This document shows positions 3,484 to 47,242 of a DNA stretch of 64,000 nt, one piece after another (the first letter of the stretch is position 1; every line of letters begins with the position of its first letter). The notes below the pieces were generated by a model, which worked only from the letters and a program-made list of their open reading frames with translations, was not told the origin of the DNA and did no database searches. A program made the position numbers and the translations under genes. The stretch is from Gemmatimonadota bacterium (GTDB lineage Bacteria > Gemmatimonadota > Gemmatimonadetes > Longimicrobiales > Gaopeijiaceae): contig JADFSR010000013.1 in the NCBI GenBank assembly GCA_022560615.1, positions 29,595 to 93,594 on the forward strand. The letters are read 5' to 3'.

Positions 3484-3789
3484 TAGAAGGGTGATCGAAA
3501 AGGGGGGCGGGCCGCGTTACGGTGCCACGGCCCCAGGTCCTAGGCGGAGCTTCGAAGGCATAGCCGTCGCTACGTCGAGGAGCTCCAACGACGGAGATGG
3601 GGCCGTGCCACCGTAACCCACACACTCCTTTGTCCTTTCAGCCATGGTGTTCGGCACATGGCGGTTGCGCGGTTGATCCATCGTCTCTCCTCGTCGCCGT
3701 AGCAAGGCTACGACTCCTCGTCGTTCCTTGCCTGAACGCGCGCAAGCACCATGTGCGCGGCCCACCTCCCTTTCCGATCACCCTTCTAT
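3484..3789 (+). repeat. MITE-like mosaic intergenic repeat, copy A (type-1 TIRs, full-length, reference orientation)
   Basis: Left end: CTAGAAGGGTGATCGAAAAGGGGGGCGGGCCGCG. Right end: CGCGGCCCACCTCCCTTTCCGATCACCCTTCTAT. The internal hairpin runs from GTGCCACGGCCCC to GGGGCCGTGCCAC. Seven other copies are present in the window. Confidence 0.85.
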
Positions 3790-4583
3790 GCCCGAGTCGC
3801 CGAAGTCTGCAAGTCCCGCAGGGCCTGCCACGCTCTTTCGGCGAGTTCGTCTCTTCGTTCGAAGTCGTATGAATGGACCGGGATCGGAGTCCCGAATCGG
3901 ATTCGAATAACGCCCGCGCGGACCAGAATCCCGTTTTTCCTCATCACGTCTCTGGACCCGATGACCGCAGTCGGAACCACTTCGGCGCCGGCCTGAATCG
4001 CCAGAACGAACGCGCCCTTCTTGAACGGCTGCAGTTCGCCCGTCGGCGAGCGTGTCCCTTCAGGAAACATGATGACGGTTGGACCGTCATCTTCCAACCT
4101 CTGACGTGCGATCTCCAGCGATTCCAAGGCGAGGTCACGGTCGCCGCGATCGATGAAGATGTGCCCGCAAGCTCCGACCGCCCTACCGAAGAAGGGTATC
4201 CGCGCAACCTCTTTCTTCGCCACGAACACATATGGACCGGGACAGAAACCGGTCAAGGCGAGAGGGTCGAACCAGGACGTGTGATTCGCCACCACGACCT
4301 GCGGTGCCGCAGAGTGGATGTTTTCCGCCGCTTCAACCTCGACCCGCACGCCGGCGATACGGAGCATCAGCCTCGACCAGGTGCGCGGGACTTCCGCGCA
4401 TACACAGTCGGCGTTCGCAGCGTTTCGGTAGACGGCCCATACAATCCGCGTCGCGTACCAGATCGTGGCCGGGATCCCCAACGCCAGCAGCGCGAGCAGG
4501 CGGATCAATGGTCGACGCTCCCGAAGTGGTCGAAACCAGCGCGCGCCAGCGGCCGCGGCTCGCCGTCGCCGCGATCGAGCCAC
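3786..4583 (-). CDS. plsC: 1-acyl-sn-glycerol-3-phosphate acyltransferase
   Basis: Carries the HTSWFD (HX4D) and FPEGTR acyltransferase motifs and an N-terminal TM helix. Its TAG stop lies in the terminal CTAT of repeat A. The start is uncertain because it overlaps thiL by 79 nt. Confidence 0.78.
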   Translation of the reverse strand: MARSRRRRAAAAGARWFRPLRERRPLIRLLALLALGIPATIWYATRIVWAVYRNAANADCVCAEVPRTWSRLMLRIAGVRVEVEAAENIHSAAPQVVVANHTSWFDPLALTGFCPGPYVFVAKKEVARIPFFGRAVGACGHIFIDRGDRDLALESLEIARQRLEDDGPTVIMFPEGTRSPTGELQPFKKGAFVLAIQAGAEVVPTAVIGSRDVMRKNGILVRAGVIRIRFGTPIPVHSYDFERRDELAERAWQALRDLQTSATRA

Positions 4584-5500
4584 ACGCCCTCCCCTTCGAG
4601 CACATGTCCGACGCGGGTCAAGTCGAGCCCGAAGCGGTCCTCGAAACGAGCCACGTCGACGATCCCCGGGTCGGCGACGAAGAGCAGCTCGTAGTCCTCG
4701 CCGCCATGCAGCGCCGCTTCCAACGCGCCCTCGGCTCCGAGGACGACGAGGGCGGCATCGGCGATCGGGACGGCACCCGCCTCCAAGACAACCTTGACGC
4801 CAGAGGCGGCCGCCAAATGGCCGACGTCACCGGCTAGGCCGTCGGATATGTCCATGAGCGCGTCAACCCATTCCTGCTCGACCAGACAGCACGCTTCGTC
4901 GATACGCGGCGTCGGACGGGCGAAGGCCGCGCGTGCTTGCGGGGACGGCTCACCCCCCTGCCGCCAAGCATGGACGGCGGCGGCGCTCGCGCCGAGGCGC
5001 CCGGTCACCCAGATCTCGTCGCCGGCCTTCGCCCCATTTCGCAATACCGGCCACGACGTACGGCCCACGACCACGACGTCGAGCACCAGGGGTCCTGGCG
5101 ATCGGGAGAGGTCTCCACCGAGAATCGCTCCACCAAGCGCTTGCACGGCTTCCTCAACCCCGACCTGCAGTGCTTCCAGATCGACGTCGCCGGCCTCCGG
5201 GACCGCAATGGACACCAGTAACCCGAGGGGGGTCGCCGCCATGGCCGCTAGGTCGGAGAGCGCGGTCGCCGCGGCGCGGTACCCGATCTCACGGTCCGAG
5301 AGCCAGCTACGTCGGAAGTGCACGTCCTCGACACACATGTCGGTACTCAGGACCCACCCACCTTCGATGACCGCCGCGTCGTCACCGGGTCCGACCCGGA
5401 CCGCCGCTGGGAGCTCACCGCCCAAAGCGATCGCCGTGCGGATCAGGTCGAACTCCGCCCCCGGGCCGAGTCGGATCGTGCGCGGCGGGTGATCGCTCAT
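4505..5500 (-). CDS. thiL: thiamine-monophosphate kinase
   Basis: AIR-synthase-related fold. GAEFDLIRTAIALG aligns to the ThiL N-terminus. The start was set at the internal ATG at 5500, 1 nt from the nnr stop. Confidence 0.8.
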   Translation of the reverse strand: MSDHPPRTIRLGPGAEFDLIRTAIALGGELPAAVRVGPGDDAAVIEGGWVLSTDMCVEDVHFRRSWLSDREIGYRAAATALSDLAAMAATPLGLLVSIAVPEAGDVDLEALQVGVEEAVQALGGAILGGDLSRSPGPLVLDVVVVGRTSWPVLRNGAKAGDEIWVTGRLGASAAAVHAWRQGGEPSPQARAAFARPTPRIDEACCLVEQEWVDALMDISDGLAGDVGHLAAASGVKVVLEAGAVPIADAALVVLGAEGALEAALHGGEDYELLFVADPGIVDVARFEDRFGLDLTRVGHVLEGEGVWLDRGDGEPRPLARAGFDHFGSVDH

Positions 5501-5501
5501 T

Positions 5502-46574: not shown

Positions 46575-46596
46575 GACTCAGGAGGCCCTGGCCCCC

Positions 46597-46806
46597 TCAC
46601 TTCGCGGCGACCGTCCCGTACATCTTCTTGAAGCGGTCGACGCGGCCCGCGGTGTCTACTAGACGCTGCTTGCCGGTGTAGAAAGGGTGGCACACCGAGC
46701 AAATCTCCACGTGGATCTCGTCCACGGTGGACATCGTCTCGAAGCGGTTGCCGCACGCACAGACGGCGGTCGCCGCCATGTATTCGGGATGGATGCCCTT
46801 CTTCAT
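46597..46806 (-). CDS. rpmE: 50S ribosomal protein L31
   Basis: MKKGIHPEY...CxC...[12 protein letters not shown]. Confidence 0.93.
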
Positions 46807-46937
46807 GTCCTACTCCAAGCACCTATGTGGAACGGGCCTGGGCGCTAACAGGCCCGGCCCGATTGACTTGCAGGGACATTTTGTACGCGACGCCCCCAGT
46901 ACAGCCTAGAAAAGTTAAATGTCTCGGGCGGAGGGGT

Positions 46938-47242
46938 CTAGGGAGCCTGTGAACAAGTAGGGCGCGCCGCGCGCAGGGGTCTCGCGAGTTCAAGAGTAGG
47001 AAGGACGACGAGTCGTAGCCGTAGCTACGGCGAGGAGGAGAGACGACCTATTGGGCCGCGACCCCCCTGCGCCCAACACCGAGTGTGACAATCGTACCGG
47101 TTTGTGGGTTACGGTGGCACGGCCCCATCTCCGTCGTTGGGGCTCCTAGCCGTAGCGACGGCTATGGCGTCGTCGCCCCGCCTAGGATATGGAGCCGTGG
47201 CACCGTAACGCGGCGTGCCCTACTTGTTCAGAGGTTCCCTAG
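46938..47242 (-). repeat. MITE-like repeat, copy H (type-2 TIRs, inverted core)
   Basis: Left end: CTAGGGAGCCTGTGAACAAGTAGGGCGCGCCGCG. Right end: GCGGCGTGCCCTACTTGTTCAGAGGTTCCCTAG, immediately followed by the dcd ATG. Shares copy B's architecture, with TGAACAAG at both ends. Confidence 0.85.

Follow-up and report, generated by a model that had tools for sequence, protein, structure and literature searches.

What are the short repeats scattered among the genes of a 64,000-nucleotide stretch of Gemmatimonadota DNA, and what moves them? The stretch, referred to here as the window, is taken from contig JADFSR010000013.1 of assembly GCA_022560615.1. A sequence-only reading had described the repeats as a mosaic, mobile family bounded by terminal inverted repeats (TIRs), of the Correia or MITE kind (MITE stands for miniature inverted-repeat transposable element) and distinct in sequence from known families. 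This description holds. The repeats are MITEs, that is, non-autonomous DNA transposons, probably moved in trans by a DDE transposase of the IS5/IS1182 group. They are small, non-coding and multi-copy; they have TIRs, they duplicate their target, and their presence varies between relatives. A plausible cognate insertion sequence (IS) is found for one end type. The family is new, being unrelated in sequence to any searchable described family, and it has no match in Rfam or in the searchable literature; its kind, the bacterial MITE, is well known. What is unusual about it, namely its size, G+C content, two-hairpin core, optional modules and exchangeable IS-type ends, is a matter of detail and does not amount to a new principle.

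Apart from one unrelated 53-nt pair, comparison of the window with itself by BLAST finds repeated DNA at exactly eight places (3482-3794, 7083-7487, 8185-8457, 10889-11297, 17331-17554, 30570-30839, 40131-40444 and 46938-47242; copies A to H, in this order), which are the same eight intervals that had been read from the letters. The elements are 206-407 bp each. They are mutually about 80-91% alike, their flanks are unique to each copy, and the family occurs in many independent assemblies; the copies are therefore not an assembly artefact, which had been named beforehand as a way in which the family might be refuted. Reading of the copies confirms a common core, shared modules and three end types. 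A 44-nt core sequence occurs five times with three or fewer mismatches, against none expected from shuffles. Its central 24-mer is also present in copy F and is deleted from copies C and E.

Each canonical element, of about 302 bp, has a non-coding core of about 240 nt, which consists of two long imperfect hairpins with a variable spacer between them. Stop codons are found in most reading frames of the consensus, and the lengths of module insertions and deletions are not multiples of three. The core is enclosed by TIRs of about 31 bp, in which 96% of stem cells are paired (20 elements). The outer 18 bp of each end form an IS-type terminal inverted repeat, of which there are at least four sequence types: type 1 is G[A/G]AGGGTGATCGGAAAGG (in short form, G[A/G]AGGGTGATCGG), type 2 is GGGAGCCTCTGCACAAGT (a variant, T2b, also exists in other genomes), type 3 is GAAGGCTGTTGAAGAAGT, and type 4, found in other genomes and in one remnant in the window (32340-32371), is GCAGCCCGTGGTAGAAGT. 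Inward of every end type lies a conserved stem of about 13 bp, ..GGGCCGCG.

From genome and metagenome loci, 64 unique complete elements were assembled (67 end-pairs were detected, three of which are artefactual pairings). Mean column identity in the element alignment is 82%. The canonical length is 298-305 bp irrespective of end type, and the family ranges from 120 to 407 bp; long and short forms differ by optional hairpin modules of 22-27 nt and by deletions. Hybrid elements, with a different type at each end, account for 6 of the approximately 64, and most of them are flanked by TA on both sides. The central 24-mer is found at 30 places in nine species-representative metagenome-assembled genomes (MAGs), all labelled Gemmatimonadota or Longimicrobiales. 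A degenerate type-1 end is found in 75 metagenome contigs, with many of the matches at contig ends. One metagenome contig (L079) is 99.8% identical to the window and carries the same copy F. Scans of viral contigs with the core and with the type-3 end gave no matches, and the searchable literature holds no earlier record of these sequences, or of repeats or MITEs in Gemmatimonadota.

Insertion can be read directly from relatives. Three loci (L031, L032 and L033), obtained via homologues of serine hydroxymethyltransferase (SHMT), are syntenic with window positions 1-21 kb at 90-94% nucleotide identity. Site A is filled in the window only and is empty in all three (CTCT-CTAT-GCCC). The empty form, ..CTCT-C-TA-T-GCCC.., and the filled form, ..C-TA-[GAAGG...CCTTC]-TA-T.., together show that the duplication is TA and that the G and C of the apparent CTAG are the element's own; the empty sites place the insertion at the TA of the TAG stop codon of an acyltransferase gene. 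Empty sites had been proposed beforehand as the means of defining the duplication, and they define it as TA; the idea that CTAG is duplicated has to be given up. At site B, the window and L033 have an element, and L031 and L032 have the empty sequence GAG-CTAG-CGGG. Site C is occupied in the window and L032, the empty form in L031 and L033 being TTT-CTAG-SAAGCC, and site E is filled in the window and L031 and empty in the other two. At site D, only a 17-nt right-end remnant, CTTCAACAGCCTTCTAG, remains in the three relatives. At the stop codon of the enolase gene, L032 carries a type-3 element and the window an empty CTAG. Copy G is missing from a further syntenic locus (L022), in which an element occupies the CTAG that is empty in the window near 42812. 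For copy H, synteny with L018 ends at the edge of the element, so there is no orthologous site to compare. Comparison of filled with empty forms shows TA duplicated at sites A, B and X.

Across the family, TA precedes 130 of 185 unique ends (70%); at position -3, 69% have C and 21% have T. The elements prefer YTAR as their target, in many cases as part of a TAG stop codon. No element with TTAG on its left has TTAG on its right as well, so a 4-bp duplication is excluded. TAG stop codons are the target in three of the resolved cases; there, the duplicated TA and the terminal G of the element rebuild the stop. The window has three-fold fewer CTAG sites than expected (64 rather than 207), and elements account for 17 of the 64. 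The window has a G+C content of about 65%; TA and CTAG are rare in such a genome and are often part of TAG stops, which accounts for the position of the copies between genes. CTAG or YTAR had been reported on both sides of copies A, E, F, G and H; this is correct for F, G and H and incorrect for A, which has CTAT, i.e. not YTAR, at its right flank.

The same flanks had been taken to point to the IS5 group, and IS5/IS1182-like ISs with the same termini and the same junctions do exist. An autonomous element with matching termini is seen for type-4 ends; for type 3, there is only a rhizobial IS. The latter was found by comparison of the type-3 end with plasmids, where it matches the exact termini of an unannotated IS at 17 of 18 positions (L109, L110). 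The junction of this IS is cta/GCAGGCTGTTGAAGAAGT...CCTGC/tag (slashes mark element boundaries), and its transposase, of 363 aa, belongs to the IS5 family (281 bits, against a cut-off of 140 for NCBIfam IS5_4). A homologue of this transposase is encoded on a contig (L008) of the Longimicrobiales MAG that is closest to the window (CBDANQ; 93% identical where syntenic), and this MAG carries both a 1.5-kb IS and MITEs. The IS on L008 is 1497 bp long (5694-7190, cTA/GCAGACCGTGGATAAAGT...CCACGGACTGC/TAg). It encodes a transposase of 473 aa with DUF772 and DDE_Tnp_1 domains, for which the best NCBIfam score is IS1182.

Fourteen copies of this IS family were read (L008, L111-L124), with lengths of 1497-1538 bp. 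All 14 are flanked in the same way, TA/GCAG.CCGTGG...CCACGG.CTGC/TAG, and the left TA is preceded by C in 13 (in L115 it is preceded by A, i.e. ATAG). The IS right end, which reads GCAGCCCGTGGAAGAAGT when reverse-complemented, matches the type-4 MITE end at 17 of 18 positions, and one pair of MITE and IS ends matches at 16 of 16. More generally, in IS5/IS1182-group ISs with GCAG.C.GT.GAAGAAGT termini it is the outer 16-18 nt that match MITE ends (type 4, 17/18 or 16/16; type 3, 17/18). These ISs and the MITEs also have the TA duplication in common and make the same junction, cTA/G...C/TAg. The MITEs differ from the ISs in lacking a transposase gene, in having an unrelated interior and in having paired ends that extend about 13 bp further inward.

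In the 1.5-kb IS (L008 5694-7190; L111-L124), the ORF for the 473-aa transposase continues across the right inverted repeat. In L008 it ends at a TAG that consists of the duplicated target TA and the flanking base; the stop codon is thus supplied by the insertion site.

Several points weigh against movement by an enzyme of this group. The similarity between IS and MITE is confined to the terminal 16-18 nt, so the core is not an internal-deletion derivative of that IS. No autonomous element was found with type-1 or type-2 ends, which are the ends of seven of the eight window copies (five of them type 1): the 75 metagenome contigs with a type-1 end, scanned for an autonomous partner, yielded only MITEs, truncated copies and short deletion forms, and comparison of both end types with the plasmid collection gave no IS matches. 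The gene of a cognate IS is absent from the 64-kb window, as had been claimed from the start. The L008-type transposase scores under the NCBIfam cut-offs (188 against 270 bits for IS1182, 90 against 140 for IS5_4), and its family assignment is approximate. The empty form of site E has no TA (GGTC-GYCG-ACC; L032 2790-2809, L033 3659-3676). Finally, pairing within the internal hairpins is kept by compensatory changes, and a plain cut-and-paste model with a DDE enzyme needs none.

On the reading preferred here, an IS5/IS1182-group DDE transposase, provided by a full-length IS with the same termini, would bind both ends of an element, excise it and integrate it at a TA, preferably within CTAG or YTAR, with duplication of the TA. 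Upon insertion into a TAG stop codon, the terminal G of the element would restore the stop. Related ISs presumably serve the other end types. After insertion, a copy would decay in a roughly neutral fashion, by point changes and by the loss (possibly also the gain) of small hairpin modules. Copies would also recombine with one another, and decay and recombination together would yield the mosaic.

The paired core deserves separate treatment. The two strands of copy A have folding energies of -176 and -186 kcal/mol, and z is about -12 for each. In an alignment of 20 canonical elements that together represent every end type, pairing holds in 97.3% of cells, and both sides have changed in 32 of the 85 pairs; 21 of the compensated pairs are in the terminal stem and the rest are in the two internal hairpins. 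Neither the 500 shuffles nor any slid register approach these values. The hairpins are related at their apices: that of hairpin 1 is homologous to the reverse-complemented apex of hairpin 2. The most conserved part is the 3' arm of hairpin 1, also in a sample which was not selected by that sequence, and two conserved pyrimidine-rich tracts are unpaired in the consensus structure.

It is possible, though unlikely, that the core of about 240 nt is itself the real unit of selection: a core-centric parasite which repeatedly acquires and exchanges the 18-bp termini of IS5-group lineages, rides several transposases and keeps its hairpins for its own propagation. The number of end types and the hybrid elements are the basis for this proposal. 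If it were true, the hairpins might be a transposition enhancer or a site for a host factor, or might act via a single-stranded or RNA stage, and the dense cluster in the window might be a recent burst of the type-1 lineage.

IS630/Tc1-mariner is the classical TA-duplicating family, and IS630 itself prefers CTAG. Strict TA duplication and a preference for palindromic CTAG would suit MITEs of this group, moved by an IS630-type transposase encoded elsewhere in the genome. RUP, the best-supported bacterial case, was assigned to IS630-Spn1 on the same kind of evidence (PMC2229807), and the search for a partner of the type-1 ends found none. Such an origin is nevertheless improbable: the ISs whose termini match have transposases with DUF772 and DDE_Tnp_1 domains (IS5/IS1182) and themselves make TA-flanked CTAG junctions, and neither an IS630-type gene nor a matching terminus was seen in the loci read or among the plasmids.

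A functional structured RNA, either a small RNA of the host or of the element or a cis-acting mRNA element kept for uses such as mRNA processing or stabilisation, would account for the stable folds on both strands, the compensated pairs, the conserved 3' arm of hairpin 1 and the two unpaired tracts. Copies within operons (site A) must also be co-transcribed. A small RNA had been suggested by the sequence-only reading, and it now appears very improbable. Both orientations relative to flanking genes occur (4 against 3 among minus-strand genes), so that copies stand both ways round in one transcription context, and most copies are absent from close relatives. Orthologous filled copies are 0.87-0.94 identical, against 0.85-0.90 at the third codon positions of neighbouring genes, and they differ by insertions and deletions of 29-60 nt; they evolve at about the third-codon-position rate and lose whole modules. 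Tests of strand preference give contradictory answers. By minimum free energy, 40 of 42 elements fold better on the strand complementary to the core (G-U pairs, 305 against 194); by G-U against A-C counts in the consensus hairpins, the opposite strand is favoured (52 against 14, with 19 of the 52 coming from one doubtful column). In Rfam, the window matches only a tRNA; gathering and permissive thresholds both yielded nothing of relevance, and the best Rfam matches on the elements are far under threshold, e.g. 31 bits against a gathering score of 137. A scan for promoter and terminator consensus sequences found nothing inside the elements. Copies thus behave as nearly neutral DNA after insertion. 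A host RNA gene does not explain the conserved paired core; the best explanation for it is selection between lineages that propagate, or exchange from copy to copy.

Spread as single-stranded DNA in the manner of REP/BIME or REPIN elements, by an HUH enzyme (a Y1 RAYT or IS200/IS605-type enzyme, or the IS91-type Y2 enzyme of the window), would agree with the mosaic of small G+C-rich hairpins, the foldback potential of the whole element with its maintained complementarity and the presence of an IS91-family transposase gene, but it is extremely improbable: the long TIRs reach right to the element's termini; the target, with C-TA-G on either side, is symmetric and has its TA duplicated, whereas HUH elements duplicate nothing and insert beside an asymmetric tetranucleotide that is fixed; the repeats have no sequence in common with the IS91 region; and a Y1 transposase was not seen. 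The small hairpin modules were also considered as free-living REP-like units and rejected, as within the window they are found inside elements only and never outside. The IS91-type transposase was rejected as a helper; it has no sequence in common with the repeats, and its known target logic differs.

Known repeat families provide a context for the MITEs described here. Correia elements occur in subtypes with alternative end variants and reach a density of about one per 8 kb; in Neisseria they are about as dense as the repeats in the window, and so are REPs in E. coli. A density of one element per 8 kb had been called far higher than that of typical IS-derived MITEs, and in fact lies within the Correia/REP range. 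It is also known for this window only, and relatives hold one or two copies in the same 21 kb. The elements differ from Correia, ERIC and RUP in several ways. There is no sequence similarity; the present elements are about 300 bp rather than 100-170 bp, and G+C-rich rather than A+T-rich. They have paired ends of 31 bp, two separate core hairpins and optional 22-27-nt hairpin modules, and there is a plausible cognate IS for one end type.

REPs are units of 20-40 nt, associated with RAYT (Y1) genes, that have no long terminal repeats and duplicate no target. The present family resembles BIME, REP and REPIN elements in consisting of intergenic mosaics of small G+C-rich palindromic units, in both orientations and at similar density. 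It differs in that the whole unit is bounded by TIRs and TA, and in that the modules are not free-standing. The elements work in the manner of Correia/NEMIS, ERIC/IRU and RUP, which have TA termini from target duplication, transcripts predicted to form long stem-loops and both long and short forms (PMC2229807). As in those families, the elements are non-coding and multi-copy, with TIRs and 5'-TA-3' termini that come from target duplication; they have long stem-loops and length forms which differ by internal segments, and they insert beside and within operons (PMC2229807).

As far as the searchable literature shows, this is the first MITE family described for Gemmatimonadota, a little-studied and mostly uncultured group, and it comes with a candidate helper IS. 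The repeats also explain why short-read assemblies break at these sites. Close relatives differ at most sites, so the insertions are convenient strain-level markers. The family shows clearly how insertion into a TAG stop codon can restore the stop, and the combination of a conserved paired core with exchangeable IS-type ends makes it a good system for studying what non-autonomous elements need beyond their ends in order to spread.

The individual copies illustrate the range of forms. Copy A (3486-3786, plus strand) is a canonical 301-bp element with type-1 ends, GAAGGGTGATCG..., and flanking TA at 3484-3485 and 3787-3788; its approximate anatomy is left TIR 3486-3515, hairpin 1 3516-3617, a variable spacer, hairpin 2 3654-3756 and right TIR 3757-3786. 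Copy G (40135-40436, plus strand), a canonical type-1 element of 302 bp with CTAG at both flanks, is about 91% identical to copy A. The third canonical element is copy H (46941-47239, minus strand), of 299 bp, which has type-2 ends and lies in a divergent intergenic region with CTAG at both flanks. Two copies are long forms with additional small hairpin modules: copy B (7086-7486, minus strand), of 401 bp, with type-2 ends, GGGAGCCTCTGCAC..., and copy D (10890-11296, plus strand), of 407 bp, with type-3 ends, GAAGGCTGTTGAAGAGGTACAG.... The right TA of copy D is part of the TAG stop codon of an acyl-CoA dehydrogenase gene. The remaining type-1 copies are shortened. Copy C (8190-8459, minus strand; 270 bp) is without the 5' arm and loop of hairpin 1 and has degenerate flanks, copy E (17340-17545, minus strand; 206 bp) lacks most of hairpin 1, and copy F (30575-30830, plus strand; 256 bp) is without hairpin 2 and has CTAG at both flanks.

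A ninth trace of the family, overlooked in the sequence-only reading, at 32340-32371 (no strand assigned), is a 32-nt perfect-ended foldback remnant with type-4 ends, ctaGCAGCCCGTGGTGGAAGTACCACGGGCTGCcag. It is the sole trace in the window of the end type whose cognate IS occurs in relatives, and is either a collapsed type-4 element or a product of excision or deletion. A possible further remnant at 554-612 was considered, and the evidence was too weak for it to be counted. In another locus (L028), a minimal type-2-like element (about 3941-4010; about 70 nt), made up of ends and a few core bases, abuts a type-3 element with a common CTAG; this pair suggests repeated insertion at a TA made by an earlier copy.

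The genes flanking the copies are ordinary housekeeping genes (enolase, acyltransferase, YjeF, SHMT, acyl-CoA dehydrogenase, Rex, MutS2, YqeY and CtpA). All copies had been taken to be intergenic, which fails for copy E: in genomes where site E is empty, the Rex and RNase T-like genes overlap, and copy E lies in the 5' end of the RNase T-like ORF. This ORF is called about 28 codons shorter where the site is filled, and the insertion seems to have changed a gene start. A YqeY-like ORF (30822-31262, minus strand) crosses the CTAG into the right inverted repeat of copy F (30822-30830) and stops at a TGA there; its last few codons and its stop are thus supplied by the element.

Other mobile DNA is present nearby. 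The window had been said to encode no transposase that mobilises the repeats, which is correct; it does encode a transposase of another kind. A tyrosine recombinase (59885-60751; Phage_int_SAM_4 and Phage_integrase) is followed directly by an IS91-family rolling-circle transposase (60755-61948; Y2_Tnp and Zn_Tnp_IS91), so the window holds a mobile element, at 59885-61948, which is unrelated to the repeats. In L033 (CBDDDK contig_1), an IS3-type element (19324-20759; HTH_Tnp_1 and rve) and an integrase fragment lie just past the conserved block; they are absent from the window. A pair of 53-nt repeats at 56622-56674 and 58442-58495, unrelated to the MITE family, brackets a fragment of a TonB-dependent receptor (57018-58010) which has only the N-terminal CarboxypepD_reg and Plug domains. 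The pair and the fragment may reflect a rearrangement or an insertion beside the IS91-type element.

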